A stretch of DNA of 64,000 nt from assembly GCA_963557715.1 (NCBI GenBank), contig CAUWCN010000006.1, positions 3,468 through 67,467 on the forward strand, read 5' to 3'. A program made the translations under genes and the position numbers. This document shows, in pieces, positions 780-38,942 of the stretch. The notes below the pieces were generated by a model. It saw nothing but the letters and a program-made list of their open reading frames with translations. It made no database searches and had not been told where the DNA came from. Origin of the DNA: an uncultured Atopobiaceae bacterium. GTDB lineage: Bacteria; Actinomycetota; Coriobacteriia; Coriobacteriales; Atopobiaceae. Within the stretch, counting starts at the first letter, position 1. Every line of letters begins with the position of its first letter.

Positions 780-863
780 AAGCCGGCGCCGCGACACACT
801 AAACTGTTCCTAGTTTCGAGCGAATCGGTTTCCCAATTCCCTCCGACAGAGAGAAGGTCATTG

Positions 864-2309
864 ATGGCATTCAGAAAGAAGACCAAGATCGTCTGCACCA
901 TGGGCCCGGCCACCGAGGACGAGGAGGTCCTGCGCCAGCTCATCCTGCACGGCATGAACGTCGCCCGCTTCAACTTCTCCCACGGCTCCCACGAGTACCA
1001 CCGCACCATGATCGAGAAGGTCCGCTCCCTGTCCGACGAGCTGGGCATCCCCGTGGCCATCCTGCTCGACACCAAGGGCCCCGAGGTCCGCACCGGCGTC
1101 CTGGCCGACGGCAAGAAGGTCACCCTCGAGACCGGCAAGACCTGCGTCGTCACCACCGACGACGACGTCATCGGCACCGCCGAGCGCTTCTCGCTGGACT
1201 ACAAGAACCTCCCGAGCGAGGTCGAGAAGGGCTCTGTCATCCTGATCGACGACGGCCTCATCGGCCTCGAGGTCGACCACGTCGAGGGCAACGACATGCA
1301 CTGCGTGATCACCAACGGCGGCGAGCTGGGCGAGCACAAGGGCGTCAACGTCCCCAACGTCAACATCGGCTTGCCCTCCGTCACCGCCCAGGACCGCGCC
1401 GACATCATGTTCGGCTGCGAGCTCGGCATCGACGCCATCGCCGCGTCCTTCATCCGCGACGGCGAGGCCGTCGAGGAGATCCGCAAGATCTGCCTGGAGA
1501 TGGGCAGCCCCAACGTCCAGATCTTCCCGAAGATCGAGAGCTACCTGGGCGTCAAGAACTTCGACGAGATCCTGCACGCCGCCGACGGCATCATGGTCGC
1601 CCGTGGCGACCTGGGCGTCGAGGTCCCTGCGGCTCAGGTCCCGCACATCCAGAAGACCATCATCAAGAAGTGCGCCGAGCACTACAAGCCGGTCATCACC
1701 GCCACCCAGATGCTCGACTCCATGCAGCGCAACCCGCGCCCGACCCGTGCCGAGATCACCGACGTCGCCAACGCCGTCTACGACGGCACCGACTGCGTGA
1801 TGCTCTCCGGCGAGACCGCTGCTGGCAAGTACCCCGTCGAGGCCGTGCGCACCATGTCCGAGATTTGCAAGGAGACCGAGAAGTACCTCACCAGCAAGGG
1901 CGAGTACTTCGACCGCGGCGGCGTCCGCAACGTCAACGGCGCCACCGGCTTCGCCGCCGTCGAGATGGCCAACCGCGTCGACGCCAGGTGCATCCTGGTG
2001 CCGACCCACTCCGGCCGCTCCGCGCGCCTGATCTCCAAGTTCCGTCCCTCCATGCCGCTGTACGCCATGTCGCCCAGCGACGAGAGCATCCGTCGCACCT
2101 GCTTCTACTGGGGCGTCTACGCCTTCCGCACCAGCGAGCAGGGCACCCTCTCCAACACCCTCTACAACGCGCTGACCGTCGCCAAGGACGCGGGCGTCGT
2201 CGAGTCCGGCGACTGCGTCGTCATCACCGCCGGCGACCCGCAGACCTCTCCGCGCCTGGGTGACTACACCACCTCCACCAACATGGCCATGATCGCCCAG
2301 GTCCAGTAG
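864..2309 (+). CDS. pyk: pyruvate kinase
   Basis: KTKIVCTMGP, RFNFSHG, DTKGPEVR, MVARGDLG, ATQMLDSM, PRPTRAE and MLSGETA motifs; RBS GAAGG. Confidence 0.98.
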   Translation: MAFRKKTKIVCTMGPATEDEEVLRQLILHGMNVARFNFSHGSHEYHRTMIEKVRSLSDELGIPVAILLDTKGPEVRTGVLADGKKVTLETGKTCVVTTDDDVIGTAERFSLDYKNLPSEVEKGSVILIDDGLIGLEVDHVEGNDMHCVITNGGELGEHKGVNVPNVNIGLPSVTAQDRADIMFGCELGIDAIAASFIRDGEAVEEIRKICLEMGSPNVQIFPKIESYLGVKNFDEILHAADGIMVARGDLGVEVPAAQVPHIQKTIIKKCAEHYKPVITATQMLDSMQRNPRPTRAEITDVANAVYDGTDCVMLSGETAAGKYPVEAVRTMSEICKETEKYLTSKGEYFDRGGVRNVNGATGFAAVEMANRVDARCILVPTHSGRSARLISKFRPSMPLYAMSPSDESIRRTCFYWGVYAFRTSEQGTLSNTLYNALTVAKDAGVVESGDCVVITAGDPQTSPRLGDYTTSTNMAMIAQVQ

Positions 2310-4307: not shown

Positions 4308-5468
4308 CTATCGCTCGTACACGGTTCGGCCACCGACCATGGTGCGGACGACCTCGTACTCGTCGTCGAGGATAACGAGGTCGGCGCAGTTGCCCACGGC
4401 AATGGCGCCCTTGTCGGCCCAGCCGAGGAGCCTGGCCGGATTCTGGGTCATGGGCCTGCAGGCGAGCTCGACCGGAGCGCCGGTGAACCTCATGAGGTTG
4501 CGCAGGGCGCAGGCCTCGGTGAGCGTGGAGCCGGCGCGGACGCCGTTGGACGCGAGCTTGGCGTCGCCGTCCTCGACCACGACGTCGTTGACGCCGAGCT
4601 TGTACTTGCCGTCGGGCAGGCCCGCGGCCATGATCGAGTCCGTGACCGCCAGGATGCGGTCCCAGCCCTTGGCCTTGACGTACAGGCGGACGGTCCCAGG
4701 GTGCAGGTGACGGCCGTCGCAGATCGTCTCGGCGTACACGTCGCTCTCCAGGGCGACGCCGAAGATCGCGGGGTCGTGCTGGTGGAACAGGCGCATGGCG
4801 TTGCCGACGTGCGTGGCGGCCTTGGCGCCGGCGCGCACGCACTCCCAGGACAGGTCGTAACCGGCACCGCTGTGGCCGATGGCGCAGGTGATGCCCATGG
4901 CCTCGAGCTGCGGGATGAGCTCGGGGACGCCGGGGACCTCTGGCGCCAGCGTGGTGTACAGCACGTGGCCGCCGGCGGCCTCCTGGTAGCGACGAAAGAG
5001 CTCGGGGTCCGCCTGGTGCATGAGCAGGTCCTCGGGCATGGCGCCCTTGTACTCGCTGGACAGGCACGGGCCCTCCAGGTGGATGCCGAGAAGCGCCGCA
5101 CCGTCGTACGGGCCGCCCTCGATGACCTTGCGGGCCTCGGCGATGGCGGCAAGCGTCTGCTCCGGGGTGTCGGTCAGGATCGAGCACAGCCAGCCCGTGA
5201 CGCCCTGGCTCGCGAAGAAGCGGCCGATGCGGCGCAGGCCCTCCTCGTCGGCGGCGTTGACGTCGACGCCGGCGGCGCCGTGCGTGTGAACGTCCATGAA
5301 GCCGGGCAGGACGATGCGCCCGGAGGCGTCGAGGACGGGAAGGCCCTCGTGGTTGTCGTACTCGCTCGAGGTCGACGCGATTCGGCCGTCGACGACCTTG
5401 ACGTTGACGCGGGCGAGCTCGCCGTCGACGAGCACGCGCGCGCCGGTGATGTAGCAGGAACGCTCCAT
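4308..5468 (-). CDS. nagA: N-acetylglucosamine-6-phosphate deacetylase-like amidohydrolase (atypical)
   Basis: PGFMDVHTHG, HLEGP, GHS, THVGNAM, ICDGRH, VTD and AGS motifs. HQHDP is present where the canonical motif is HHRxP. Confidence 0.85.
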   Translation of the reverse strand: MERSCYITGARVLVDGELARVNVKVVDGRIASTSSEYDNHEGLPVLDASGRIVLPGFMDVHTHGAAGVDVNAADEEGLRRIGRFFASQGVTGWLCSILTDTPEQTLAAIAEARKVIEGGPYDGAALLGIHLEGPCLSSEYKGAMPEDLLMHQADPELFRRYQEAAGGHVLYTTLAPEVPGVPELIPQLEAMGITCAIGHSGAGYDLSWECVRAGAKAATHVGNAMRLFHQHDPAIFGVALESDVYAETICDGRHLHPGTVRLYVKAKGWDRILAVTDSIMAAGLPDGKYKLGVNDVVVEDGDAKLASNGVRAGSTLTEACALRNLMRFTGAPVELACRPMTQNPARLLGWADKGAIAVGNCADLVILDDEYEVVRTMVGGRTVYER

Positions 5469-5486
5469 GATGCTGTGCCCCCTTGT

Positions 5487-6302
5487 CTAGTAGGCCCTGC
5501 CGGCCGCAACGTCGTTGACGTAGATGCGGGCGTCGGGGTGGCCCTGGACGAGGGTCGCGGGGAAGCCCGCCGTGGGCTCGCCGTACGCGGCACGGCGCAC
5601 GACGGCACGGTGCCAGTCGCGGAAGACGCCGAGACGCACCTTGCGCGCGCCGAGGATCTGGCGCATGCCGATGGTGACGCAGCGGTGCGGCATGTCCTCG
5701 AGGGCGCCGCCGAGGTCGCCGACGCAGTTGGTGGCGCGGGTCTCCGGGTGGATGTCGAGCTTGCGGGTGTCGAGGTCGGCGAACTCCTCGCAGCTCATGG
5801 ACGCGTCGGGCTCGTTGAAGGCGAGGTGGCCGGTGATGCCGATGCCGCCGAAGCAGATGTCGACGCCGCCGAGCTCGTCGATGAGGCGGCCGACGCGCTC
5901 CGGGTCCTTGGGGTCGGGGAAGACGCGCTGCTCGACGGGCATGAGCAGCTCGGGGTCGATCTTGCCGTAGACCTCGCGGTTCATGAAGCCGCGGAAGGAC
6001 AGCGGGTCGGACTCGTCGATCCACTCGTCGTTGTCGTCGAGGTACTCGTCCATGTTGAAGAACCAGCAGTCCTTGAGGGACAGGCGCTCCTCGTTGACCA
6101 GGCGGACGAAGATGGGATACTGGCCGACAGGGCCGACGGGGCAGATGAAGACGGTCTTCTCGCCGCGCTCGTTGTGGGCGCGAATCTCGTCGACCATCTC
6201 GCGGGCCATCTCGTAGAAGACCTCGCCGGAGCTGCCGAGCTTGAGCAGCGGGACCTTGGCGTCGCGTCCGAGGTCCTCGGCGGAGATGTGGTAGTACTCC
6301 AT
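5487..6302 (-). CDS. glucosamine-6-phosphate deaminase/isomerase-like protein (NagB family, atypical)
   Basis: FNMDEY, GGIGITGHLAFNEP and CVTIGMRQIL. The phosphate loop reads CPVGPVG. RBS AGGAAGGGAG. Confidence 0.8.
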   Translation of the reverse strand: MEYYHISAEDLGRDAKVPLLKLGSSGEVFYEMAREMVDEIRAHNERGEKTVFICPVGPVGQYPIFVRLVNEERLSLKDCWFFNMDEYLDDNDEWIDESDPLSFRGFMNREVYGKIDPELLMPVEQRVFPDPKDPERVGRLIDELGGVDICFGGIGITGHLAFNEPDASMSCEEFADLDTRKLDIHPETRATNCVGDLGGALEDMPHRCVTIGMRQILGARKVRLGVFRDWHRAVVRRAAYGEPTAGFPATLVQGHPDARIYVNDVAAGRAY

Positions 6303-6422
6303 GGGTTTGCTCCCTTCCTCATGTGCCACGGCCCCTCCCGCAAGAGGACACTCATCCTGCGAAAGGGGCCATGGCGGCCAGCCTGCTCAGGCTGGGATGC
6401 GATTCAAGCTGTCGTGCGCGTG

Positions 6423-7490
6423 CTACTTGATCTTCTCGTAGAGCTCGGCGCCCTTCTGCATGGCGTCGAAGTCGATGTAGTCGTCCAGCGGGACCTCGCC
6501 CTCGACCTTGCCGCCGTCGACGAAGACCTTCTGCTGGGCCTGGTAGTAGCCGCGGATGGTGTCGATGTCGCCGATGCACTTGGCGGCACCCTCCCAGTCG
6601 CCCTCGCCCACGGACTCGAGCATGGTCTCCTCGGGGAGCTCCAGCTTGCTGGCGAGCATCTTGGCGACCTCGTCGATGTTGGCGGCACGGTAGACCTGGG
6701 CCTTGTCGATGGCCGCGCAGAAGCGCGCGAGGATGTCGGCGTTGGCCTCGGCGTACTCGGGCAGGCAGATGAAGGAGCCGGGGAAGGCGACCTTGTCGGA
6801 GTAGTCGGTGTTGGTGCCGAGAACCAGGTAGTCGTCACCGAGCTGCTTCTTGAGAGCGACGGTGTTGGGCGACCAGGTAGCGGCGGCGTCGATGGCGCCG
6901 GAGGTGAGGGCGGTCGTCATGCCGGCGACGTCCATCTCGACGGCGTTGATGTCGTCCATGGTCAGGCCAGCGCCCTCGAGGACGTACTGGAGGATGATCT
7001 CGGACGAGGTGCCTGCGGCCAGGCCGACCTGCTTGCCCTTGAGGTCGGCGGCGGTGTTGATGCCCCTGGCCTTGTTGGCGACGACGGCGTCGGCCTTGGA
7101 GAGCTGGTCGAACGCGAAGATCGTGGCCTGGCCCTGGATGCACAGGGAGTGGGCGCCGTGGCCGATCTGGGCGATGTCGATCTTGCCGGACTGCATAGCG
7201 GTGATCTCGGCCGGGCCCTTCTGGAACTGCTCGGGCTCGACGGTGATGCCGACCTCGGCGAAGTAGCCCTGCTCCATGGCGGTGAACAGCGAGGAGGCGG
7301 AGCCGAGGTTGGGCATGTAGGCGACGCGGAGGGTGACGGGCTCGTACTCGCTGCTCGCCGGCTTGTCGGCCGGCTTGTCACCGGACTCGCCGCTGCAGCC
7401 CGCCAGGGCCAGGCCGGCGGTGGCGACGGAGGCGGCACCGAAGAGCTTGAGGAACGAGCGGCGGGAAAGCTGGTCCATGATGTTCTCCAA
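6423..7490 (-). CDS. NitT/TauT (SsuA/TauA-like) ABC substrate-binding lipoprotein with Tat signal
   Basis: SRRSFLK twin-Arg motif, LAGC lipobox, and G..EITAMQSGKIDIA, ADLKGKQVG..GTSS and AL.SG.IDAA.TW.P motifs. Confidence 0.85.
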   Translation of the reverse strand: MENIMDQLSRRSFLKLFGAASVATAGLALAGCSGESGDKPADKPASSEYEPVTLRVAYMPNLGSASSLFTAMEQGYFAEVGITVEPEQFQKGPAEITAMQSGKIDIAQIGHGAHSLCIQGQATIFAFDQLSKADAVVANKARGINTAADLKGKQVGLAAGTSSEIILQYVLEGAGLTMDDINAVEMDVAGMTTALTSGAIDAAATWSPNTVALKKQLGDDYLVLGTNTDYSDKVAFPGSFICLPEYAEANADILARFCAAIDKAQVYRAANIDEVAKMLASKLELPEETMLESVGEGDWEGAAKCIGDIDTIRGYYQAQQKVFVDGGKVEGEVPLDDYIDFDAMQKGAELYEKIK

Positions 7491-7550
7491 TCAGATCTGA
7501 CGTGGGGGAGGCCCGCAGGCCTCCCCCTACTGACACGCGCTCTGGGCGCG

Positions 7551-8317
<767 letters not shown>

Positions 8318-8342
<25 letters not shown>

Positions 8343-9094
8343 CCCGTGAACCTCCTCTCGAGGTACCTGACGATCTTCTCGAAGCAGATGCCGATGATGC
8401 CGAGCAGGATGATGCCGAGAAGGACGACGTCCATCTGGTAGAAGCCGGAGGCCTGCTGGATCATCATGCCGATGCCCTTGTCGCCGCCGACGATCTCGGA
8501 GGCCATGAGGGTCGTGAGCGAGGTGGAGAGTCCGAGCCTGGCGGCCACGAGGATGAACGGCGTGGAGGCAGGGATGGTCACCTTGAAGAAGATGTCGGAC
8601 TGCTTGGCGCCCAGGACGCGGGCCGCCTTGATGAGGGTGGTGTCGACCCCTCGGACGCCCTGGTAGATGGTAATGACCATAACCAGGAAGGAAGCGATGA
8701 AGATGACCGTGACCTTGGCGACCTGGCCGATGCCGAGGGCCGCGATGATCAGGAAGACGTACGCCAGGGGCGGGATGTTCCTGATGAACTGGATCCACGG
8801 CTCGACGAGGTGACGGAACGGGTCGTACCAGGCCATGAGGAACGCCACCGGGATCGAGATCACGAAGGCGATGCCGAAGCCCATAAGGACGCGCGACAGC
8901 GACGCCCACACGTGCGGCCACAGGGAACCGGACACTGCACGGGACACGAACGCGTCCCAGACCTGCACCGGAGACGCGAACACCGCAGGCCAGGTCGCGG
9001 AGGCGAGCATCCACAGCCCGACCGCCGCCGCGAAGGAAATCAGCGCCCAGGCCCAGCTGGGCACCTTGCTCCACATAGAACTCTTCTTGTTCAA
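8318..9094 (-). CDS. NitT/TauT ABC transporter permease
   Basis: Hydrophobic; SLSRV..GF, IPPLA and EAA-like KAARVLGA motifs. Confidence 0.9.
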
Positions 9095-9124
9095 CTTTCC
9101 CCCTCCTTGCTTCTACCTAAAGCG

Positions 9125-9440
9125 CTTAAACGATTAAGTACGGTAGATCGAAGGCCGGCGGAATCTCTCATCTCCTGCGCCTGTCGAGTCGAACGATTCG
9201 CGCGGCCTGTGCTACTCAAACGATTAAGTCCCCGCTGCCATGTTTCGGCTTGGGAACGTCAATGCTCGCGGCACCCGTCCGTGCATGCCGCTCGAGGATG
9301 AATCTAGGCCGCTGGCGCCGACTTGGCACGCCCTGCTCGGCCAACGGTAGCTTTTTGCGGGTAGACGCAAAATCCGCAGCCCGCTAAGCAAACGAGCCCG
9401 AACAGTGGTAAATAGATGCTACTAGGCTTAATCGTGTAAG
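9125..9440. promoter_or_regulatory. three LacI-type operators in a divergent promoter region
   Basis: CTTAAACGATTAAG (9125-9138), CTCAAACGATTAAG (9215-9228) and CTTAATCGTGTAAG (9427-9440, inverted). These are CG-centred palindromes next to a LacI gene. Confidence 0.75.
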
Positions 9441-9467
9441 TTAGGCGCGACCCACTGGGAGGGCAGA

Positions 9468-10592
9468 ATGGGACGACGCACGACGCTCAAGGACGTTGCC
9501 CGCGAGGCCGGCGTCACCGCCGCCACCGTGTCGTACGTGATCAACGACACCCCCGGCCAGTCGATCAGCGCCGAGACCCGCAGGCGCGTCATGGACGCCG
9601 TCGGGAAGCTGCACTACGCGCCCAACGCGCACGCGCGCACCCTGCGCAGCAAGAGCTCCCCGTGCGTCGGCGTGGTCATCACCAAGAACCTCGCCGTGCC
9701 ACGCTTCAGCCAGACCGTCTACGGCCTGCAGAGCCGCCTGAGCCGCGACGGCTACAGCGTGCTGCTGCTCGAGGACGCCCCGACGCCGGCGGGCTACGGC
9801 GCCTACGTCAACGCGTACCTCGCCGGCCGCGTCGAGGGCATCGTGTTCCTCGGCAAGGACAACGTCGGCCCCGACGAGCGCAGCGTCCAGGTGCTCGCGG
9901 AGGAGAAGGCCCCGTTCGTGGTCTTCGACTGCCAGTCCAAGGGCAGCACCCACAGCTCGGTCGACCTCGACTACGAAGGCGGCGCACAGCTCGTCGCCGA
10001 GCGCGTCCTCGAGTCGCGCCCGCGCCACGTGCTGTACTTCCGCCCGGACATGGACAACGCCCAGGAGGAGCTGCGCGAGCGCGGCGTGCAAGAGGCCTGC
10101 GAGGCGGCCGGCGTCGAGCTCATCGTCAGGCGCGCCCCCATCACGCAGGGCAACCTCGACACGTGGGACGCGCGCTACTCCGTCGGCGACACCGAGGAGG
10201 GCCTCGAGCTCACCGACCGCTTCCTCGAGTGCGTCTGCGAGGCGCTCGACCCCCTCGAGGACGGCGACGCCGTGATCAGCTCCTGGGCCACCTGGACGCA
10301 CTACTTCCGCAAGGCGACCCCGAACCGCCAGCTCACCTACGCAGAGCTCGCCAACAACGGCGAGAGCTGGATCGCATCCAACTTCTACACGCGCATGCCC
10401 AACTTCGAGGCCGGCGTCACGTGCGCCGAGGAGATCCTCTCGCTCATGCGAGGGGGCGTGGCGTGCGCCCGCAACATCCGCCTGTCGAACATCGTCGAGG
10501 CGACGATGCCCGCAAAGACCAGCAACGCCAGTCAACCCACGCCTTCGGGCATGGACAAGGAGATGATGCACAATGCCGCTCGTTCCGCTTAG
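9468..10592 (+). CDS. LacI-family transcriptional regulator
   Basis: TLKDVAREAGVTAATVSYVIN HTH and Y.PNA.ARTL hinge. Confidence 0.93.
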   Translation: MGRRTTLKDVAREAGVTAATVSYVINDTPGQSISAETRRRVMDAVGKLHYAPNAHARTLRSKSSPCVGVVITKNLAVPRFSQTVYGLQSRLSRDGYSVLLLEDAPTPAGYGAYVNAYLAGRVEGIVFLGKDNVGPDERSVQVLAEEKAPFVVFDCQSKGSTHSSVDLDYEGGAQLVAERVLESRPRHVLYFRPDMDNAQEELRERGVQEACEAAGVELIVRRAPITQGNLDTWDARYSVGDTEEGLELTDRFLECVCEALDPLEDGDAVISSWATWTHYFRKATPNRQLTYAELANNGESWIASNFYTRMPNFEAGVTCAEEILSLMRGGVACARNIRLSNIVEATMPAKTSNASQPTPSGMDKEMMHNAARSA

Positions 10593-11730
10593 GCCCGTGC
10601 TGGACGCCGCCCGCAAGGGCGGGTACGCCCAGGGTGCGTTCAACGTCAACGCCGTCTGCCAGGCGAAGGCCGCCATCGAGGTCCACCAGATGCTGCGCAG
10701 CGCCGCCATCCTGCAGGGCGCCGACCTGGCCAACGCCTTCATGGGAGGCCGCACCGACTTCGCCAACGGCACCGTCGAGGACAAGATCGCCGGCGCCCGC
10801 AACATCGGCGAGGCCGTCAAGAGGTACGCCGAGAAGGCCTCCATCCCCGTGGTCCTGCACCTCGACCACGGCCGCGACATGAGGAGCGTCGAGGCCGCCA
10901 TCGCCGGCGGCTACACCTCCGTCATGATCGACGGCTCCTCGCTCCCCTACGAGGAGAACGTCGAGCTCACGCGCGAGGTCGTCAAGTACGCCCACGCCCG
11001 CGGCGTCTCCGTCGAGGGCGAGCTGGGCGTCCTGGCCGGCGTCGAGGACCACGTCTTCGCCGCCTCCAGCACCTACACCAACCCGCTGACCGCCGTCGAC
11101 TTCGTCCGCAAGACCAAGGTCGACGCCCTGGCCATCAGCTACGGCACCATGCACGGCCCCTCCAAGGGCGCCGGCGTCAAGCTGCGCCGCGAGATTCCCG
11201 TCGCCATCCGCGAGTGCCTGTCGCACGAGGGCCTCGAGTGCGCCCTGGTGAGCCATGGCTCCTCCACCGTCCCCTCCTACATCGTCGAGGAGATCAACGA
11301 GCTGGGCGGCGACATCCGCAACGCCCACGGCATCAGCCTCTCCGAGCTCAAGGCCGCCATCCCCTGCGGCATCAACAAGATCAACGTCGACACCGACATC
11401 CGCCTGGCCGTCACGCGCAACATGCGCGAGCTGTTCGAGCGCCGCCCCGAGCTGCGCGAGAGCACCTCCGTCTCCGGCGTCTGGGACCTGCTCAGGGAGC
11501 ACCCCGAGAACCCCGACCCGCGCGCGTTCCTGCCGCCCGTCTTCGACACCGTCATGCACGGCACCGTGCCCGACGCCGACGTCCAGGCCCTCGTGGACGC
11601 CATCGAGGCCGGCGTGAAGGAGGCCATCGCCACCCTGGTCGTCGAGTTCGGCAGCTACGGCAAGGCCCCCAAGGTCGAGGTCGTCACCCTCGACGAGATG
11701 GCCGAGCGCTACGCGAAGGCCGGGATCTAG
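10573..11730 (+). CDS. class II ketose-bisphosphate aldolase
   Basis: GAFNV, LHLDH, SVMIDGS, VEGELG, GTMHG, HGSS and KINVDTD; carries a long C-terminal insertion. Confidence 0.9.
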   Translation: MPLVPLRPVLDAARKGGYAQGAFNVNAVCQAKAAIEVHQMLRSAAILQGADLANAFMGGRTDFANGTVEDKIAGARNIGEAVKRYAEKASIPVVLHLDHGRDMRSVEAAIAGGYTSVMIDGSSLPYEENVELTREVVKYAHARGVSVEGELGVLAGVEDHVFAASSTYTNPLTAVDFVRKTKVDALAISYGTMHGPSKGAGVKLRREIPVAIRECLSHEGLECALVSHGSSTVPSYIVEEINELGGDIRNAHGISLSELKAAIPCGINKINVDTDIRLAVTRNMRELFERRPELRESTSVSGVWDLLREHPENPDPRAFLPPVFDTVMHGTVPDADVQALVDAIEAGVKEAIATLVVEFGSYGKAPKVEVVTLDEMAERYAKAGI

Positions 11731-11731
11731 C

Positions 11732-12898
11732 ATGGCGGCCGACGGCCTTCTCGTCGTGCACGGGGGCGGGCCCACTGCGGTCATCAACGCCTCCCTGTAC
11801 GGCGCCGTGGACGAGGCGCTGCGCACGCCCGGCGTCGGCCGGGTCCTCGGCGCGCGCGGCGGCATGGGCGGCATCCTGGACGCCGACTTCGTCGACTTCC
11901 GCCAGGTGTCCCCCGAGCGCCTCTCGCTGCTGCCGCACTCGCCCTCCTCGGCGATCGGCACGAGCCGCAAGCCCCTCGAGGACGACGACTACCGCGACCT
12001 CGCCCACGCCCTGCGCGACTCCGGCATCCGGTGGCTGCTGCCCACCGGCGGCAACGGCACCATGGACACGTGCGGCCGCATCTGGCGCGCGTGCCGCGAG
12101 GAGGGCGTGCCCATCGACGTGGTGGGCATTCCCAAGACCATGGACAACGACATCGCCGTGACCGACCACGCCCCCGGCTTCGCAAGCGCAGCGCGCTACA
12201 TGGCGGCGAGCGTCTCGGAGGTCTGCTGCGACGTCCGCGGCCTGCCCATCCACATCGCCGTCGTCGAGGCCATGGGCCGCAACGCCGGCTGGGTCTGCGC
12301 CGCCTCGGCCCTGGCCGACGAGTCCGGCACCGGCGGCCCCGACCTCATCTACCTGCCCGAGCGCGACTTCGACGAGGACGCGTTCCTCGACGACTGCCAG
12401 CGCCTCATCGACGAGAAGGGCTCCGGCGTCGTCGTCGTCAGCGAGGGCCTGCACACCGACGACGGCACCCCCGTGGCCCCGCCCCTCATGACCGTGGGCC
12501 GCGCCACCTACTTCGGTGACGTCTCGGCCCACCTCGCCCGCCTCGTCATCGAGCGCCTGGGCTACAAGGCCCGCTCCGAGAAGCCCGGCCTGCTCGGCCG
12601 CGCCTCGATCGCCTGGCAGAGCGACGTCGACCGCGAGGAGGCGGTGGCCTGCGGCCGCGAGGCCGTGCGCGCCGCCCTCGAGGGCGACTCGGGCAAGATG
12701 GTCGGCATCGAGCGCGTCTCCACCGAGCCGTACGAGGCGCGCCTCGTGCGCATCCCCATCGAGCAGGTCATGCTCGAGGAGCGCACGCTGCCCGACGAGT
12801 ACGTCAACGAGCGCGGCAACGGCGTCACCGACGCCTACCGCGACTGGCTCAGGCCGCTGCTGGGCGCCCCGCTCAGGCGGTTCGCCAGCTTCTGCTGA
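11732..12898 (+). CDS. PfkA-family 6-phosphofructokinase-like kinase
   Basis: GGGPTAVIN, GGNGT, PKTMDND, EAMGR.AGW, LPE and VSEG motifs. Confidence 0.88.
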   Translation: MAADGLLVVHGGGPTAVINASLYGAVDEALRTPGVGRVLGARGGMGGILDADFVDFRQVSPERLSLLPHSPSSAIGTSRKPLEDDDYRDLAHALRDSGIRWLLPTGGNGTMDTCGRIWRACREEGVPIDVVGIPKTMDNDIAVTDHAPGFASAARYMAASVSEVCCDVRGLPIHIAVVEAMGRNAGWVCAASALADESGTGGPDLIYLPERDFDEDAFLDDCQRLIDEKGSGVVVVSEGLHTDDGTPVAPPLMTVGRATYFGDVSAHLARLVIERLGYKARSEKPGLLGRASIAWQSDVDREEAVACGREAVRAALEGDSGKMVGIERVSTEPYEARLVRIPIEQVMLEERTLPDEYVNERGNGVTDAYRDWLRPLLGAPLRRFASFC

Positions 12899-12936
12899 GC
12901 TCGCGCGCCACGACCGCATTCGACAACGGAGGGAAC

Positions 12937-13773
12937 ATGAAGCACATCTTCCTCAACCTCAAGAGATTCGACATCGTCCCGGAGCTCGGCGGCGTCAACC
13001 GCCTGGCCGCCCCCGCGCAGTGGGGCGAGGCCGTGACCTCCTCCATCAGGCAGGTCGCCGAGGCCCACGAGGACGTCGAGTTCGCTGCCTTCCTGCCCGA
13101 GGCGCACCTCGTCGGTGCCGTCCGCGGCGCCGAGGGCTCGCCCCTGGGCGTCGGCTGCCAGGGCGTCCACACCGCCGACACCGCCGTCGGCGGCGGCTTC
13201 GGCGCCTTCACCACCCTGCGCACCGGCAACTCCGTGGCCCAGCTCGGCTGCGGCTGGGCGCTCGTCGGCCACTGCGAGGAGCGCATGAACCTGCGCGCCG
13301 TCATGGGCGAGGCCGGCGCCGAAGGCCCGGAGGTGGAGGCAGCCGTCAGCCGCATCCTCTCCCGCGAGGTCGTCGCGGCGCAGGCCGCGGGCCTCAAGGT
13401 CCTCTTCTGCATGGGCGAGCGCACCGAGGAGCAGCCCGAGTGGGAGCGCGTCATCTCCGACCAGGTCCAGCAGGGCCTCGACGGCGCCGACCCCGACCGC
13501 GTGCGCATCGCCTACGAGCCCGTCTGGAGCATCGGCCCGGGCAAGGTGCCCGCCGACGCGCCCTACATCCAGAAGGTCGCCCGTCTCGTCAAGTCCTGCG
13601 CCCCCGGCGTCGACGTCGTCTACGGCGGCGGGCTGAAGGCCGACAACGCCGAGATGCTCGCGGGCATCCCCGAGGTCGACGGCGGGCTCATCGCCCTCAC
13701 GCGCTTCTCGGGCCAGATCGGCTTCTACCCCGACGAGTACGCGCAGATCGTCGAGCTCTACCTCAACGCCTAG
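12937..13773 (+). CDS. triosephosphate isomerase-like protein (divergent)
   Basis: NLK, GAFT, GHCEER, YEPVWSIG and YGGG; lacks the GGAS phosphate loop. Confidence 0.82.
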   Translation: MKHIFLNLKRFDIVPELGGVNRLAAPAQWGEAVTSSIRQVAEAHEDVEFAAFLPEAHLVGAVRGAEGSPLGVGCQGVHTADTAVGGGFGAFTTLRTGNSVAQLGCGWALVGHCEERMNLRAVMGEAGAEGPEVEAAVSRILSREVVAAQAAGLKVLFCMGERTEEQPEWERVISDQVQQGLDGADPDRVRIAYEPVWSIGPGKVPADAPYIQKVARLVKSCAPGVDVVYGGGLKADNAEMLAGIPEVDGGLIALTRFSGQIGFYPDEYAQIVELYLNA

Positions 13774-13834
13774 TCACCGGCCGCGGGCCCGCGCACCCTG
13801 GTGCGGGCCCGCGCCACATGGAAAGGAACACCAC

Positions 13835-15331
13835 ATGAGACTTGAGTTCGAGTACGGCACCGGCAAGATGGCGGCGGACCTCCCCGACTCCACCGACGTC
13901 TTCGTCACCGGAGAGACCGTCAAGGACCCGCAGTGCCTGCCCCAGGACTGGGACAGCCTCTACGCCGCCACGCTCGACTCCATCCGCCACCCCATCGGCA
14001 TGGAGCCCCTCGCCGACCTGGCCCACCCCGGCGCCACGGCCGTCATCGTGATCCCGGACATCATCAAGGGCGGCACGCAGCCCACCGCGCACCGCAAGGT
14101 CGCCATCCGCGCCTGCCTCGACGAGCTGTTCGCCAACGGCGTGCGCCACGACGACGTGCTGCTGCTCTTCTCCAACGGCCTGCACCCGCGCACCACGACG
14201 CAGGAGGCCAGGGAGATCCTGGGCCAGGAGCTCTTCGACGAGTTCTACTACACCAACCAGATCACCAGCCACGACTCCGAGGACTACGACCACCTCGTCG
14301 ACCTCGGCTGCACCGCGCAGGGCGACCACGTCATCATGAACAAGTACGTCTACGACGCGGACATCGCCATCCTCATCGGCCACACCCAGGGCAACCCCTA
14401 CGGCGGCTACTCCGGCGGCTACAAGCACTGCGCCACCGGCATCACGCACTGGCGCTCCATCAGCGCGCACCACGTGCCCAAGGTCATGAACCGCCCCGAC
14501 TTCGTCCCCGTCTCCACGCACAGCCTCATGCGCGACAAGTTCGACCAGCAGGGCATGTTCATGGAAGAGAAGATGGGCAAGAAGTTCTTCTGCTGCGACG
14601 CCGTCCTGGACACCTGGAGCCGCCAGATCGAGATCAACTCCGGCTGGGCCGCCGAGATGCAGCCCGTCGCCTGGAAGACCGCCGACAAGCGCACCTACGT
14701 CCACTGGGCCGAGAAGAAGTACGACATCGTCGTCATGGGCATGCCCACCAAGTTCCACTACGGCGACGGCATGGGCACCAACCCCATCCAGATGATGCAG
14801 GGCATCTCCGCCCAGGTCATCCGCCACAAGCGCATCCTGTCCGACCACTGCGTCTTCGTCATCGCCAGCTACTGCGACGGCTGGTTCCACGACGAGCGCT
14901 GGCCGTACCTGCGCGAGGAGTGGGAGCTCTGGCAGTCCGACAAGATGAACACCCTCGACGACATGATCAAGTACGGCGAGTACTTCGCCACCAACGAGGA
15001 GTACATCCGCAAGTACCGCTACGCCCACGCCTTCCACCCGTTCCACGGCTTCAGCATGATGACCTGCGGCAACCTCGCCGAGAAGTACCTGAGCGCCACC
15101 TACATCGTCGGCGCCCAGAAGCCCGGCATCGCCCGCACCATGGGCCTCAAGACCCGCGCCACCTTCGAGGAGGCCATCGCCGACGCCACCGCGAAGTACA
15201 CCGACGGCCACCCCAACATCCTGGCCCTCCCCGGCGCGTACACCTCCGCCGTCCCGCACCTGTGCATGAAGGACCCGTCGCTCAACAGCCACTACCGCGA
15301 CGACGCCCCCGCGCACCCCTGCGGCTGCTAG
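13835..15331 (+). CDS. LarA (lactate racemase)-family nickel-pincer protein, divergent
   Basis: YG N-terminus, PIG..PL.DL, IVIPD, NGLH, HD, G.T..G..V..N, GYSGGYK and later His. Confidence 0.8.
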   Translation: MRLEFEYGTGKMAADLPDSTDVFVTGETVKDPQCLPQDWDSLYAATLDSIRHPIGMEPLADLAHPGATAVIVIPDIIKGGTQPTAHRKVAIRACLDELFANGVRHDDVLLLFSNGLHPRTTTQEAREILGQELFDEFYYTNQITSHDSEDYDHLVDLGCTAQGDHVIMNKYVYDADIAILIGHTQGNPYGGYSGGYKHCATGITHWRSISAHHVPKVMNRPDFVPVSTHSLMRDKFDQQGMFMEEKMGKKFFCCDAVLDTWSRQIEINSGWAAEMQPVAWKTADKRTYVHWAEKKYDIVVMGMPTKFHYGDGMGTNPIQMMQGISAQVIRHKRILSDHCVFVIASYCDGWFHDERWPYLREEWELWQSDKMNTLDDMIKYGEYFATNEEYIRKYRYAHAFHPFHGFSMMTCGNLAEKYLSATYIVGAQKPGIARTMGLKTRATFEEAIADATAKYTDGHPNILALPGAYTSAVPHLCMKDPSLNSHYRDDAPAHPCGC

Positions 15332-15340
15332 GGACGCGAC

Positions 15341-16630
15341 GTGATCCGGCTTGACCTGAGCCACCTCGGCGCGCGCGTGGGCCTCGACGACCTCGCGCGC
15401 GCCGGAGCCGGACGCGAGGCCCTTCTCGCCGCCTGCCAGGCCGGCGAGAGGGGCGACCGCGCGTCCCTGGGATGGCTCCGCACCTCCGAGTGGGCCGACG
15501 ACGCCCACCTCGACCAGATCGAGGCCCTGGCGGCCCGCCTGCGTGGCCTGGCGGACACCTTCGTCCTCATCGGCGTGGGAGGCTCCAACAACGCCGCACG
15601 CGCCATCCTGGGCGCCCTGGGGGCCCGCGACGGCTCGCTCGACGGCGGGGCGCACCGCGTCGTGTGGGCGGGCAACACGCTCTCGGCATTCCAGCTCAAC
15701 CGCGTCCTCGAGGACCTCGAGGGCCACGAGGTGGCCATCGACTGCGTGGCCAAGAACTTCCAGACCCTCGAGCCCGGCTCGTCGTTCCGGCTCCTGCGCC
15801 AGCGCCTCGTCGCCCGGCACGGCGAGCGCGAGGCCGCGCGGCGCATCGTCTGCTGCGGCACGCCCGGCTCGTCGCTCGAGGACCTGAGCCGCGAGCAGGG
15901 CTACGCGTTCCTCCCCTTCCCGCCCGACGTCGGCGGCCGCTACACCGCCCTGACCGGCGTGCACCTGCTGGCGCTCGCCTTCGCCGGCGCCGACGTCCGC
16001 GCGCTCGTGGCGGGCGCGCGCGACGAGGAGCGCGAGCTGCTCTCGGCGCCCGCGGGCTCCAACATGGCGTGGGACTACGCCTGCGCCCGGAAGGCCGCCT
16101 GGGACGCCGGCCTGCGCATCGAGCTCCTCGGCCTCTTCGAGCCGCGCCTCGCCGGCTTCGGCAAGTGGTTCGAGCAGCTCTTCGCCGAGAGCGAGGGCAA
16201 GGACGGGCTGGGGCTTCTGCCCTGCTCGGCCGAGTACTCCGAGGAGCTCCACAGCCTGGGGCAGTACGTCCAGGACGGCACGCCCCAACTCATGGAGACG
16301 TTCGTCGAGGTCCTCGGGCGCGGCGAGGGCGACTCGCTGCCCTGCGGCCCCACCGACGTCGACGACGGCTTCGGCTACCTCGACGACCTGGACTTCTGGG
16401 ACGTCAACCGCGCGAGCTTCGAGGCCACGCGCGACGCCCACGCGCAGCGGCTGCCCGTCCTGTGCGTGCAGCTCGACCGGCTGTGCGAGGAGGACCTGGG
16501 CCGGCTGCTCTACTTCGAGATGCTCTCGTGCTACCTCTCGGCCGAGCTGCTGGGGGTCGACCCCTTCGACCAGCCCGGCGTCGAGGCCTACAAGCGGCGC
16601 ATGTTCGCCGCGCTCGGGGCCGCGCGCTGA
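15341..16630 (+). CDS. glucose-6-phosphate isomerase-like protein (divergent)
   Basis: LGW, IGVGGS, GGRY, QLFAESEGK, LHSLGQ and PFDQPGVEAYK; AKNFQT replaces SKSGxT. Confidence 0.85.
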   Translation: MIRLDLSHLGARVGLDDLARAGAGREALLAACQAGERGDRASLGWLRTSEWADDAHLDQIEALAARLRGLADTFVLIGVGGSNNAARAILGALGARDGSLDGGAHRVVWAGNTLSAFQLNRVLEDLEGHEVAIDCVAKNFQTLEPGSSFRLLRQRLVARHGEREAARRIVCCGTPGSSLEDLSREQGYAFLPFPPDVGGRYTALTGVHLLALAFAGADVRALVAGARDEERELLSAPAGSNMAWDYACARKAAWDAGLRIELLGLFEPRLAGFGKWFEQLFAESEGKDGLGLLPCSAEYSEELHSLGQYVQDGTPQLMETFVEVLGRGEGDSLPCGPTDVDDGFGYLDDLDFWDVNRASFEATRDAHAQRLPVLCVQLDRLCEEDLGRLLYFEMLSCYLSAELLGVDPFDQPGVEAYKRRMFAALGAAR

Positions 16631-16882: not shown

Positions 16883-17293
16883 ATGGCACAGGAGTACGCG
16901 GCGACGGGCAAGTACACGACGCTGGACCCGACGCAGCTGGCGGAGTCGATGGAGCGCCTCGAGGGGGTCTGCGTCGTGGCCACCGTCAACGAGGACGCGA
17001 CGCCCAACGCGGCGATCTTCGTCCCCACCATGCCCGACGAGTCGCACGTGGCCCTGGTCCTGGGCCCCAACCGCACGCGCGAGAACATCGAGCGCACCGG
17101 CACCTGCACGATGGTCTACGACGTGATGGACCCCACGGCCACGACCAAGGCCGAATCCCACCGCGGTGCGCGCCTGGCCCTCTCGCTGGTGCGCCCGGAC
17201 GAGGAGGAGCACGCCCGCGTCGAGGCCGCCTGGCCGCACTTCAACGAGTACACGCTGCTGCTGCGCGTCGAGCGCCTCGAGCTCGTCGGCTAG
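16883..17293 (+). CDS. pyridoxamine 5'-phosphate oxidase-like (split-barrel) protein
   Basis: VVATVNEDATPNAA and NRTRENI motifs; RBS GGAGGGGAG; -10-like TACAAC at 16843. Confidence 0.7.
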   Translation: MAQEYAATGKYTTLDPTQLAESMERLEGVCVVATVNEDATPNAAIFVPTMPDESHVALVLGPNRTRENIERTGTCTMVYDVMDPTATTKAESHRGARLALSLVRPDEEEHARVEAAWPHFNEYTLLLRVERLELVG

Positions 17294-26144: not shown

Positions 26145-26145
26145 G

Positions 26146-26970: not shown

Positions 26971-26983
26971 GCTTCCTCCTTGC

Positions 26984-27910: not shown

Positions 27911-27964
27911 GCGGTCCTCCCTCTCTCGTATCCAACACGGCCGCCACGCGGCAGCCGATGGCCC

Positions 27965-29353: not shown

Positions 29354-29413
29354 GCTGGCTCCTTCGGTCGCGCGGGACGAGATGGTGCACGTTACTCGTC
29401 CATGCTAGAGGCC

Positions 29414-29504
29414 TTGGAACAAATTCCAACACATGAGTGGAACGTGTTCCGCTCAATGGTAGAATAAATTCCGTGAACGTTATGTGAATGCGGAATTAAT
29501 TTCA
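29414..29504. promoter_or_regulatory. four GGAA-N4-TTCC-like palindromes (probable RpiR operators)
   Basis: ttggaacaaattccaa 29414, tggaacgtgttccg 29438, tagaataaattccg 29460 and cggaattaatttca 29491, in an AT-rich patch upstream of the sulfatase-PTS operon. Confidence 0.65.
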
Positions 29505-29523
29505 GATTAGGGCGCCCACGACC

Positions 29524-30330: not shown

Positions 30331-30471
30331 GTGTCTCCCGCCTCGCTCGATACTGAAACGTATCGTCGCACGGCGGGCCGCGGGTCGCAAACGTCGAGAA
30401 GGACCTTCCGTCGAAAATCGACCGAGAAGTGGGAGGCCGAGCGCCCGGGCGACGGGACGCGCTCCGAGCCG

Positions 30472-30939: not shown

Positions 30940-31001
30940 GGTGCCTCCAATCCGGCACGCGGCGACGCGCCGAGCTCCCCTGCGCCACGTCGCACGACGC
31001 G

Positions 31002-31790
31002 CTACGCAAGGGCGAACTTGTAGATGTTGTACGCGTTGATGAGGATGATGAGCACCATGAGGCCCATGAAGAGCTTGTCCACGGTCCTGTCGTCGATCTT
31101 GGCGTTGACCTTGCGGCCCACGACGCCGCCCAGGATGCCGCAGACCACCATGGCCGCCAGCAGCACCAGGTCGACGCCCTCCGAGCCCCCGGAGAGAAGC
31201 AAGCTCGCCGTGCTCGTCGCCTGAGAGAACAGGATGATGTAGAGCGAGCTCGACGCGGCGCGCTTGGTGGCCATCGTGAAGAAGTAGAAGAGCACCACGA
31301 GGTTGATGGGGCCGCCGCCGATGCCCAAAAACGAGGAGCACACGCCCAGGGCGAAGCCGATGACCAGGCACGCCACCGCGGACTCGATCTTGAGCGTGGG
31401 GATCTTCTCCTTGTAGATCGTGTAGACTAGGGTCCCCAGCGTGATCGCCAGGAGCAGGCCCGCCTGCACCGCGCCGGCTGTGTTGGGGTCGGGGAAGAGC
31501 CCCGCCACCAGCGAGAAGAGCTCCTTTCCGGCAAGGCCGCCCACCGCGGCGCCGATGGCGAGCGGGGTGTCGGTCTTGGGGTCGATCGTCGAGGTGCCGG
31601 AGAGCTTGGCCTTGAGGACCGAGTAGAGCGTCATCGAGAGGACCGTGCACCCCGAGAGGAAGTTGATCGTGGCCACGTCGGCCACGCCCGTGGCATCGAG
31701 AACTGGCTTGATGATGATGCCCCCGCCGATGCCGCAGATGGCCCCGACGGTGCAGGCGAAGAAGCTGACGAGAAGCACGAGCACTTGCAT
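31002..31790 (-). CDS. TauE/SafE-family sulfite/anion exporter
   Basis: Duplicated GIGGG motifs (GAICGIGGG, SFLGIGGG); about 8 TM helices. Confidence 0.85.
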   Translation of the reverse strand: MQVLVLLVSFFACTVGAICGIGGGIIIKPVLDATGVADVATINFLSGCTVLSMTLYSVLKAKLSGTSTIDPKTDTPLAIGAAVGGLAGKELFSLVAGLFPDPNTAGAVQAGLLLAITLGTLVYTIYKEKIPTLKIESAVACLVIGFALGVCSSFLGIGGGPINLVVLFYFFTMATKRAASSSLYIILFSQATSTASLLLSGGSEGVDLVLLAAMVVCGILGGVVGRKVNAKIDDRTVDKLFMGLMVLIILINAYNIYKFALA

Positions 31791-38934: not shown

Positions 38935-38942
38935 GGTCCCCC

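Follow-up and report, generated by a model that had tools for sequence, protein, structure and literature searches.

A conserved eleven-gene cluster of an animal-gut bacterium and a possible sulfatase-free glycolysis of a 6-O-sulfated amino sugar

The window, a 64,000-nucleotide stretch of DNA of an animal-gut bacterium, contained a cluster of eleven genes at 4308-16630, all with intact open reading frames (Table 1). The importer arm and the regulator were assigned to the NagA, NagB-like, NMT1/SsuA-type binding protein, ABC ATPase, permease and LacI families, the other arm to class II aldolases, the PfkA family, the TIM family, Lar_N and PGI. The start codons of two genes were refined (ATPase at 8342, NagB at 6302). 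A preliminary description had joined a NitT/TauT importer, NagA- and NagB-like proteins, an aldolase, a PFK and TPI-, LarA- and PGI-like proteins in one LacI locus with shared operators and without hexokinase or PTS. All eleven reading frames were confirmed, neither a PTS nor a sugar kinase besides PFK was found at 4308-16630, and the operators were recovered as three palindromes with a weak, overlapping fourth at 9117. These four matches compare with 0.19 expected, a count reached in 0 of 100 shuffles, and at least two like sites were present in the corresponding intergenic region of all 30 loci with a divergent layout. The PTS genes of the window (25-28 kb and about 36.7-38 kb) are part of another cluster. 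Ordinary NagA, NagB, PFK, aldolase, TPI and PGI are encoded elsewhere in the same genome. Two metatranscriptome runs had a flat, DNA-like depth over the cluster, its flanks, intergenic DNA and 22.5-42.4 kb, indicating presence, not transcription.

Table 1. Genes and operators of the cluster, with an exporter gene located outside it
Feature	Position	Strand	Basis
NagA-like N-acetylhexosamine deacetylase (predicted)	4308..5468	-	TIGR00221, 268 bits, above cut-off
NagB-like deaminase/isomerase (predicted)	5487..6302	-	catalytic residues kept, phosphate loop changed
NitT/TauT (SsuA/TauA-like) binding protein	6423..7490	-	SsuA_fam, 147 bits against a cut-off of 163.5; SsuA and TauA among PDB matches
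ABC ATPase, NitT/TauT type	7551..8342	-	profile matches
ABC permease, TauC/SsuC-like	8318..9094	-	profile matches
LacI-type operator 1	9125..9138	.	upstream of importer arm; 0 mismatches
LacI-type operator 2	9215..9228	.	like sites kept in relatives
LacI-type operator 3	9427..9440	.	27 bases before lacI; like sites in relatives
LacI-family repressor	9468..10592	+	profile matches
Class II aldolase	10573..11730	+	zinc histidines kept, Ala50
PfkA-family kinase, PRK14072 subfamily	11732..12898	+	profile and residue comparison
TPI-like protein	12937..13773	+	TIM fold, altered phosphate clamp
Single-histidine LarA homolog	13835..15331	+	PDB 9q2u/9q3k/9q3j, E about 1e-227
PGI-like isomerase	15341..16630	+	catalytic residues kept, phosphate loop changed
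TauE/SafE exporter, adjoining sulfatase cluster, outside the eleven-gene cluster	31002..31790	-	candidate sulfate exit (inferred)

Close relatives of the LarA-like gene occurred at 507 places in a species-level genome collection, and 80 loci were examined. The cluster was co-conserved among these in Coriobacteriia, Clostridia, Chloroflexi and spirochaetes, in several gene orders: TPI-like genes were present in 75 loci, aldolase in 64, NagB in 56, NagA in 55, PFK in 54, the binding protein in 48 and PGI in 37. A close homolog of the NagB-like protein was encoded in 48 of 50 cluster-bearing genomes. The genes 3' of pgi (PNPOx-like, 16883-17293, and gpm) were rejected as cluster members, being present in none of the 80 loci. 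In three loci a transaldolase replaced PFK and aldolase; the C3 aldehyde formed by either route is thus the likely substrate of the TPI/LarA pair. Two loci had a variant with a SIS-domain (AgaS-like) protein, a FucI-like protein and a second aldolase, which fits GalNAc-6-sulfate (GalNAc-6S) or Gal-6S as substrate. FucI-like genes were found in 4 of 80 loci and not in the window cluster. A DUF4838 protein, encoded in 12 loci, matched nothing in the PDB; its Atlas matches named the same family only.

The sugar enzymes had been described as keeping catalytic residues while changing the motifs for the terminal phosphate, which stood for NagA, NagB, TPI and PGI. The NagA-like protein retains metal and catalytic residues, yet Gln230 and His231 occupied in 53 of 53 cluster copies positions with His/Arg in 22 of 22 ordinary NagA; the replaced Arg is presumably the phosphate-binding one. 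In the NagB-like protein (77 bits to TIGR00502, cut-off 236.9) the catalytic Asp, His and Glu are kept, the phosphate loop is altered, and Val/Ile and His replace the residues equivalent to Arg172 and Lys208 of the E. coli enzyme, which serve there as phosphate ligands. The PGI-like protein keeps Glu283, His304 and Lys418, while its loop is changed in 37 of 37 cluster copies (Ala137, Asn139, Phe140; Asn83); all 19 housekeeping PGIs compared have an unaltered Ser/Thr-rich phosphate loop, and the genome has a separate housekeeping PGI. The PGI-like protein is likely a glucose-6-sulfate isomerase. The TPI-like protein has a TIM fold (Z 29, rmsd 1.9, 233 aligned) and the catalytic Asn7, Lys9, His112 and Glu194, but scored 68 bits to TIGR00419 (cut-off 130.6). 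The phosphate clamp of loops 6, 7 and 8 (Ala176 amide, Ser211, Gly232, Gly233) is converted to Pro, Gly, Ala and Leu in 71 of 71 copies, with Pro201, Pro205, Gly232, Ala253, Leu254 and Thr255 invariant; 30 of 30 housekeeping TPIs had the ordinary residues at these positions. The change of Ser211 to Gly was rejected as stand-alone evidence, since it was almost harmless in yeast TIM (PMC12874384). The aldolase changes are in line with these, as are those of NagB: Ala50 replaces in 60 of 60 cluster copies the 6-phosphate serine of Giardia and H. pylori FBA, with the Arg259 equivalent and the zinc histidines kept. One aldolase paralog of the same genome likewise has Ala at the serine position.

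For PFK the description is weakened: the changed motif is present in the sequence, but both counterparts of Arg243 and Arg252 of the E. coli enzyme are still arginines, and the motif argument is weak for this enzyme. Its missing histidine was rejected as stand-alone evidence, the loss being shared with the genome's own PRK14072-type PFK and PDB 3hno. Gly109, which 36 of 52 relatives share while the other 16 have Asp, predicts the use of ATP, if the Gly/Asp rule for the phosphoryl donor is assumed. That the cluster encodes redundant copies of ordinary phospho-sugar enzymes is hardly credible: NagA and PFK exceeded their family cut-offs and the PFK arginines are kept, but housekeeping copies exist elsewhere in the genome, the cluster lacks a 6-kinase or PTS, and the altered residues, invariant in cluster NagA, TPI-like and PGI-like proteins, were absent from all 71 ordinary copies (22, 30 and 19), so the variants are not common housekeeping forms. 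Cationic residues able to hold a monoanion were retained (PFK Arg281/Arg290, aldolase Arg277, TPI Lys9 and, in 68 of 71, Arg256). A neutral 6-deoxy HexNAc, yielding lactaldehyde, or a uronate would explain the lost phosphate ligands, and either lactaldehyde or lactate would be a plausible substrate of a LarA-family enzyme. Such substrates are highly unlikely in view of these distal cationic residues, the co-occurring anion-type importer and anion exporters and the lack of a recurring lactaldehyde oxidoreductase in the loci; moreover, LarA_Sp does not racemise lactate (PMC12611868). A substituted, monoanionic phosphate at C6 (phosphoethanolamine, phosphocholine or glycerophosphate on GlcNAc of cell wall polymers) or a phosphonate is just as improbable. 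It would allow both fewer dianion contacts and elimination, and the binding protein had a weak phosphonate-binding match; the pockets, however, gained bulk rather than room (Gly to Phe in PGI, Gly to Ala/Leu in TPI), and the links to TauE, ChrA and sulfatases would be left unexplained.

The surroundings in related genomes speak for a sulfur anion. Of the 80 loci, 29 had a TauE exporter gene at most 10 kb away from the LarA-like gene, often as the next gene, and five had a ChrA pair; no locus had both. The TauE subfamily was present in 43 of 50 cluster genomes, and five of the seven without it carry ChrA in the cluster. Within the own family, 15 of 16 cluster carriers had this TauE versus 18 of 134 other genomes, a comparison among kin that are not independent. 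A sulfatase or maturase adjoined this TauE in 9 of 16 regions, chosen by hand; four of the 80 loci contained sulfatases, and two other regions had them near PGI-like/GH3 genes. Sulfatase-family proteins in 45 of 50 cluster genomes count against a sulfatase-free route, and the occurrence of TauE in sulfonate clusters as well counts against a sulfate, as does the low number of loci (4 of 80) with a sulfatase. A GH31 sulfoquinovosidase was absent from the recurring and 104 scanned neighbours, and the own genome (88 % complete) had no PF01055 match. No aldehyde dehydrogenase/reductase recurred in the loci; the Aldedh matches of five genomes were all weak, to frames of AdhE and ProA size. TauE/ChrA, the sulfatases and the lack of both enzyme types favour an O-sulfate over a sulfonate, a uronate or a 6-deoxy sugar. 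The anionic HexNAc proposed before, with all four as options, is hereby narrowed to the O-sulfate; the other groups are disfavoured.

A C6 sulfonate (sulfoquinovose or N-acetyl-sulfoquinovosamine), degraded by a sulfo-EMP variant in which the TPI/LarA pair would free sulfite from sulfolactaldehyde, is decidedly unlikely. The PfkA-family kinase and class II aldolase are families of sulfo-EMP2, the transaldolase and transketolase variants resemble sulfo-TAL and sulfo-TK, the FucI-like proteins belong to the SqvD family, the binding protein is SsuA-like and TauE carries a sulfite-exporter annotation. Against this stand the missing GH31, the distance of the aldolase from SqiA structures (E 4e-28 versus 2e-50 for Giardia FBA), the near universal NagA/NagB-like genes and the sulfatases as recurring sulfur neighbours. 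N-acetylated sulfonate sugars are also rare.

The LarA homolog matched PDB 9q3j, 9q2u and 9q3k over its full length. His117 is kept, Asn187 stands at the second catalytic His, and the cofactor anchors Lys197 and His213 as well as Asp75 and Lys78 are invariant (80 of 80 loci). Structures of this single-histidine subfamily (LarA_Bw, LarA_Sp) were published; its members bind the nickel pincer cofactor, keep the D-specific His and lack lactate racemase activity, and the accessible part of the report assigns no reaction to them (PMC12611868). The authors saw glycolytic neighbours, speculated on carbohydrate metabolism and modelled a phosphorylated aldose as ligand; sulfated sugars and changes at the phosphate sites of neighbouring enzymes do not come up in the same part of the text (PMC12611868). 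In NphT, the same cofactor transfers hydride between aldoses in a dismutation, and hydride transfer was suggested for single-His LarA homologs (PMC13524815). The published subfamily and a genus seemingly without the known cofactor pathway are two points beyond the preliminary description. The LarA-like gene was strongly conserved in 8 of 18 other genomes of the genus, as judged on dN, dN/dS being distorted by the extreme third-position GC; larC was found in none of the 18, and larB and larE remained below cut-off in the own genome and three relatives. Among own-family carriers, 5 of 16 had larC, versus 30 of 33 genomes whose LarA homologs are all distant; overall it was present in 29 of 50 cluster genomes, once as a weak fragment, and adjoined the cluster in 10 of 80 loci (larB in 5). 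Since the genus appears to lack larB, larC and larE, the cofactor would have to be salvaged here, unless the enzyme works otherwise; strong conservation in such a genus raises the question of cofactor sharing. The ABC system was set aside as a nickel-cofactor importer, for it accompanies nagA/nagB and is also present in genomes that carry larC. Glyoxalase I family proteins were present in three of five genomes, and not found in the own genome and one relative (G156).

We consider a sulfatase-free glycolysis of a 6-O-sulfated amino sugar, most likely GlcNAc-6-sulfate (GlcNAc-6S) of host glycans, to have a slightly better than even chance of being the function of the cluster. The NitT/TauT system would import GlcNAc-6S, its binding protein likely holding the anionic sugar; with O6 blocked, a PTS could not phosphorylate it. 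The NagA-like enzyme would free acetate and the NagB-like enzyme ammonia, giving fructose-6-sulfate, into which the PGI-like isomerase may feed glucose-6-sulfate. Phosphorylation at C1 by PFK and aldol cleavage would yield DHAP, passing to normal glycolysis, and glyceraldehyde-3-sulfate. The LacI protein may sense the sulfated sugar or an intermediate. The fate of the C3 fragment is the least certain part, somewhat short of an even chance even for the right substrate. The TPI-like protein, whose predicted substrate is the C3 aldehyde and whose likely role is that of a sulfate-eliminating lyase, would form the enediolate and, without phosphate clamp, eliminate sulfate to methylglyoxal. The LarA homolog would move a hydride from methylglyoxal hydrate to the cofactor and back onto pyruvate, forming D-lactate, and TauE or ChrA would export the sulfate. 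Disruption of TIM loop 6 indeed favours elimination to methylglyoxal (PMC12874384). A complex prediction for the TPI-like and LarA-like proteins (score 0.00) counts neither for nor against, and a plasmid search with the TPI-like protein gave no match.

The same substrate and upper pathway with the sulfate retained is unlikely, and takes its share from the confidence in GlcNAc-6S rather than adding to it. The TPI-like protein would interconvert glyceraldehyde-3-sulfate and dihydroxyacetone sulfate, and their dismutation by the LarA homolog would give glycerate-3-sulfate and glycerol sulfate, both leaving the cell through TauE. The dismutation by NphT and the hydride transfer suggested for single-His homologs agree with this (PMC13524815). 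It would also account for the missing aldehyde dehydrogenase/reductase and parallel the export of sulfolactate or DHPS; glyceraldehyde-3-sulfate, however, should eliminate readily, given that phosphate is a far poorer leaving group than sulfate, and ChrA instead of TauE in 5 loci and TauE flanking sulfatase operons speak for inorganic sulfate. Several points weigh against the glycolysis of GlcNAc-6S itself: the genus seemingly lacks larB, larC and larE, PFK keeps both 6-phosphate arginines, the change of Ser211 to Gly is by itself nearly neutral, the binding protein stayed below the SsuA cut-off, three loci lack the TPI-like gene although the flank is long enough, and half of the sugar would be wasted, as in sulfoglycolysis, while a sulfatase route yields more ATP. 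Rather doubtful as a whole is the wider proposal of a sulfatase-free desulfation in hundreds of gut species, with entry enzymes for GlcNAc-, GalNAc-, Gal- or Glc-6-sulfate, the TIM paralog as glyceraldehyde-3-sulfate lyase, the single-histidine LarA as a nickel-pincer, glutathione-free glyoxalase (methylglyoxal to D-lactate) and, in genera like this one, a cofactor salvaged from neighbours.

Use of mucins and glycosaminoglycans with 6-O-sulfate caps is assumed to require the prior action of sulfatases. If true, direct fermentation of the sulfated monomer would open a cross-feeding niche and a new source of inorganic sulfate for sulfate reducers, and offer substrates for a structurally solved LarA subfamily without known reaction and for a family of misannotated TPI paralogs. 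According to the accessible part of the study, B. bifidum releases free GlcNAc-6S from mucin but leaves it unused (PMC11186840). The literature covered, with subscription papers largely outside it, gave no description of the pathway, of fructose-6-sulfate or of glyceraldehyde-3-sulfate. The sulfoglycolysis-like layout is supported, and the earlier view of an amino-sugar analogue of that pathway in part. Two results that would have refuted that view, variants widespread among housekeeping copies and a lack of co-conservation, were not obtained. With sulfo-EMP2 (SqvD, SqiK, SqiA) of Bacillus urumqiensis the cluster shares the entry of a C6-anionic hexose without 6-kinase, a PfkA-family kinase and a class II aldolase forming DHAP and an anionic C3 aldehyde, and the possible substitution by a transaldolase (PMC9594981). 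However, entry is by NagA/NagB/PGI paralogs here and by sulfoquinovosidase, SqvB and SqvD there; a TPI-like/LarA-like pair stands in place of a recurring aldehyde dehydrogenase/reductase, and an O-sulfate is likely instead of a C-sulfonate. The published single-histidine LarA subfamily has the same active-site residues and glycolytic neighbours, but the genus here seemingly lacks larB, larC and larE. NphT has in common the nickel-pincer hydride transfer on aldoses, with an aldo-keto reductase fold and transfer between two molecules. Folds and catalytic residues are those of the canonical Nag pathway (PTS/kinase, NagA, NagB) and upper glycolysis, whereas phosphate sites are altered and a phosphorylating entry is missing. 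Sulfatase-dependent use of sulfated HexNAc (S1 sulfatase and anSME, then Nag enzymes), for which a cluster exists at 25-42 kb of the window, likely serves the same substrate class; the eleven-gene cluster has neither sulfatase nor maturase, and its substrate would lose the sulfate only as a C3 fragment, by elimination. In the methylglyoxal synthase/glyoxalase bypass a triose ester is likewise eliminated to methylglyoxal, which is then converted to lactate; the cluster would instead employ a paralog with TIM-barrel fold and a glutathione-independent LarA fold.

The eleven-gene sugar cluster encodes a real, widespread and uncharacterised pathway. All eleven genes were intact and belong to the families that the preliminary description had assigned to them: permease, ATPase, binding protein, nagB and nagA in the importer arm, and lacI, aldolase, pfk, tpi-like, larA-like and pgi-like in the glycolytic arm. 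Three LacI-type palindromes were located in the divergent region between both arms (four matches, 0.19 expected), a genome scan revealed only two weak sites elsewhere in the source genome, and at least two like operator sites were present in each of the 30 loci sharing the divergent layout. Since the source genome encodes ordinary copies of NagA, NagB, PFK, aldolase, TPI and PGI elsewhere, the cluster has to be seen as a parallel enzyme set. The genome comprises 1.48 Mb at a completeness of 88 %, and Thermophilibacter and Olsenella (family Atopobiaceae) are its closest named relatives among the matches listed. DNA nearly identical to the window is present in animal gut metagenomes, cat and dog among them; RNA runs provided no evidence of cluster expression.

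Coordinates of the cluster, its neighbours and variant loci (L, locus fetched around a LarA-like homologue)
Feature	Position	Strand	Content
Eleven-gene sugar cluster	window 4308-16630		
Divergent intergenic region between importer and glycolytic arms	window 9095-9467		
TPI-like gene	window 12937-13773	+	
LarA-like gene	window 13835-15331	+	
D-2-hydroxyacid dehydrogenase and pyruvate kinase	window 36-2309		Near the cluster; absent from recurring neighbours in relatives
Stretch inside the PNPOx-like gene	window 16956-17275		318 bases missing from the contig of one run; strain-variable
Separate sulfated-HexNAc cluster	window 25293-42182		Mannose-family PTS, radical-SAM maturase, TauE, three sulfatases (intact cysteine signatures), ordinary NagA, two SIS proteins, RpiR and GntR regulators
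Second PTS set, apparently decayed	window 36672-38111		206-aa EIID matching its model only in part; ORFs beside it without Pfam match
Further sugar clusters	window 44316-55064		DHDPS-family aldolase, amidohydrolase, MFS, SDR, altronate-type dehydratase, aldose epimerase, HAD, DeoR, another class II aldolase
Second LacI gene sets adjoining the cluster	L007:13261-21494; L016:16508-20254; L018:15602-20093		LacI and similar palindromes upstream of GH3, MFS and sulfatase genes
DUF4838 protein	L072:14343-16220		Weak NAGLU N-terminal match
Variant locus	L052:10001-14218		larA-like and tpi-like, then split transketolase; nucleoside hydrolase upstream

With the LarA-like protein as query, the genome collection gave 507 related stretches; all locus counts refer to the best 80 of these, many of which stop at contig edges. 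The cluster genes were conserved over several phyla and in several gene orders: TPI-like in 75 loci, aldolase in 64 (two of a distant type), NagB in 56, NagA in 55, PFK in 54, binding protein in 48, permease in 47, PGI in 37 and LacI in 31. In all 75 loci having it, the tpi-like gene lies at most 300 bases from larA-like; two of the other five loci stop at a contig edge, three are truly without the gene. NagB-like proteins were encoded somewhere in 48 of 50 cluster-bearing genomes. Thermophilibacter provencensis, Collinsella stercoris and Blautia wexlerae are carriers available in culture. A DUF4838 protein, often placed between the binding protein and nagB-like, was found in L072 and 11 other of the 80 loci and is, judged from its sequence, a candidate glycosidase for freeing the sulfated sugar.

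The preliminary description had proposed that five sugar enzymes keep their catalytic residues and have a changed motif where the terminal phosphate is gripped. Cluster NagA carries Gln230/His231 in 53 of 53 copies from the 80 loci, whereas 22 of 22 other NagA genes of the class have His/Arg at these positions. In NagB-like the catalytic residues are retained, and Arg172 and Lys208, presumably the phosphate ligands, have no counterpart. An alanine replaces the 6-phosphate serine in all 60 aldolase copies, and also in one unrelated aldolase paralog of the source genome. The phosphate loop of PGI-like was altered with catalytic residues kept (37/37); cluster genomes gave 30 PGI matches, 19 with the ordinary loop and 11 with the variant, each of the latter 45-50 % identical to the window protein. 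For PFK the histidine is indeed lost, but this is weak evidence, as both arginines are kept and ordinary subfamily members also lack the histidine. The phosphoryl-donor position of PFK was Gly in 36 and Asp in 16 copies from the 80 loci, with distal-site changes common to both, which suggests that a single enzyme may occur in an ATP-dependent and a PPi-dependent version.

The TPI-like protein keeps Asn7, Lys9, His112 and Glu194. The claimed Ser211-to-Gly change carries little weight alone, costing only 0.4 kcal/mol in yeast TIM according to PMC12874384, but the deviation from housekeeping TPIs holds family-wide: Pro201, Pro205, Gly232, Ala253, Leu254 and Thr255 were present in 71 of 71 copies from the 80 loci, and where these have Pro201, Pro205 and Gly232, 30 of 30 housekeeping TPIs show Thr/Ser, Ala and Ser. 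In pairwise alignment, Ala253 and Leu254 stand for two phosphate-binding glycines. The structure was modelled with high confidence as a TIM barrel (pLDDT 93.9), which L-erythrulose-1-phosphate isomerase (Z 29.0) and TPI (Z 28.9) match equally well. In TIM, loop 6 contacts suppress elimination, and their loss increases methylglyoxal formation (PMC12874384).

As the group on C6 we favour, from the genomic context, a 6-O-sulfate. A TauE exporter was present in 29 and a ChrA (chromate/sulfate-type) pair in 5 of the 80 loci, never together. The TauE subfamily occurred in 43 of 50 cluster genomes, and five of the seven without it have ChrA inside the cluster. Among 150 Atopobiaceae genomes, which are kin and not independent, it was encoded in 15 of 16 carriers versus 18 of 134 others. 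A sulfatase or its maturase adjoins TauE in 9 of 16 hand-picked regions, three of the nine in genomes without the cluster. The window copy of TauE has three sulfatases around it, each with an intact cysteine signature; sulfatases lie inside 4 of the 80 loci, and in two further regions they are grouped around PGI-like and GH3 genes. Among recurring neighbours (104 of 186 candidates scanned), neither a sulfoquinovosidase nor an aldehyde dehydrogenase or reductase was detected. A transaldolase takes the place of PFK and aldolase in three loci (L049, L059, L073), L052 has a transketolase downstream of the TPI/LarA-like pair, and L033 and L069 have a SIS-domain protein, a second aldolase type and a FucI-like isomerase upstream of it. 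Bifidobacterium bifidum frees N-acetylglucosamine-6-sulfate (GlcNAc-6S) from mucin without assimilating it, as reported in PMC11186840. Exporter exchange, sulfatase links, missing sulfoquinovosidase, locus variants and GlcNAc-6S release taken together favour the 6-O-sulfate, and glycolysis of GlcNAc-6S is the somewhat probable substrate route. On this route NagA-like, NagB-like, PFK and aldolase would give GlcN-6S, Fru-6S, Fru-1P-6S and DHAP in turn, with low activity predicted on the 6-phosphates, and Glc-6S is the predicted substrate of PGI-like. Against a route free of sulfatase stands that the sulfatase route would yield more ATP; sulfatase-family proteins were encoded in 45 of 50 cluster genomes. 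The separate PTS cluster of the window would fit sugars that carry their sulfate elsewhere than on O6 and would complement the ABC route; L052 possibly serves a different substrate.

The LarA-like protein matches the published LarA_Sp and LarA_Bw over the full length. Both lack one catalytic histidine and have no reported reaction, and in LarA_Sp, which does not racemise lactate, the nickel pincer cofactor is bound by Lys and His (PMC12611868). Their active-site and cofactor residues were invariant in all 80 LarA-like copies. The pair is kept both where an aldolase and where a transaldolase cleaves the hexose, so its likely substrate is the product common to both, glyceraldehyde-3-sulfate. As sulfate leaves far more readily than phosphate and loss of the loop 6 contacts promotes elimination, we propose that TPI-like would eliminate sulfate to give methylglyoxal. 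LarA-like would oxidise methylglyoxal hydrate at C1 to pyruvate and reduced cofactor, a state already known as the intermediate of LarA. For irreversible hydride return to one pyruvate face, forming D-lactate, a single histidine would be enough. This would explain the absent racemase activity of single-histidine LarA. The complete lyase-plus-glyoxalase mechanism is nevertheless a tentative proposal, rather unlikely to be right in every step. The main alternative is that LarA-like may dismutate intact C3 sulfates, by analogy to the nickel-pincer enzyme NphT, which does likewise with aldoses (PMC13524815).

The distribution of the cofactor genes speaks against the proposed reading. Overall, 29 of 50 cluster genomes have larC. 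Within the family it was found in 5 of 16 carriers versus 30 of 33 genomes holding only distant LarA homologs, and within the genus in none of 18 other genomes, though eight of these carry the LarA-like gene. larB and larE scored below the cut-off in the source genome and three relatives, and both were present in G170. Yet among the 80 loci, larC adjoins the cluster in ten and larB in five. Of eight compared cluster genes, larA-like had the lowest dN in 10 of 10 relatives (0.07-0.09). Cofactor loading failed for LarA_Bw, too (PMC12611868). In the own genus, the cofactor has to come from salvage unless the LarA-like protein works in another mode; nickel-pincer cofactor auxotrophy or salvage is possible. 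Two genomes of this genus in which larC was not found (G141, G149) encode a second, distant LarA homolog besides the single-histidine one.

A description of the pathway was not found in the literature covered, which left most subscription papers outside its scope, and a 2025 paper terms glucose-6-sulfate catabolism unknown. The present analysis contributes controls with housekeeping copies, the conservation of the operators, the exchange of TauE and ChrA, the finding that cofactor genes are missing in the own genus and, for the final two steps, a mechanism to which it commits itself. In the way it works, the cluster resembles sulfo-EMP2 and sulfo-TAL (PMC9594981), yet it falls outside both by their membership tests. 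The LarA-like gene of the window belongs to the single-histidine LarA subfamily, which is already published (PMC12611868).
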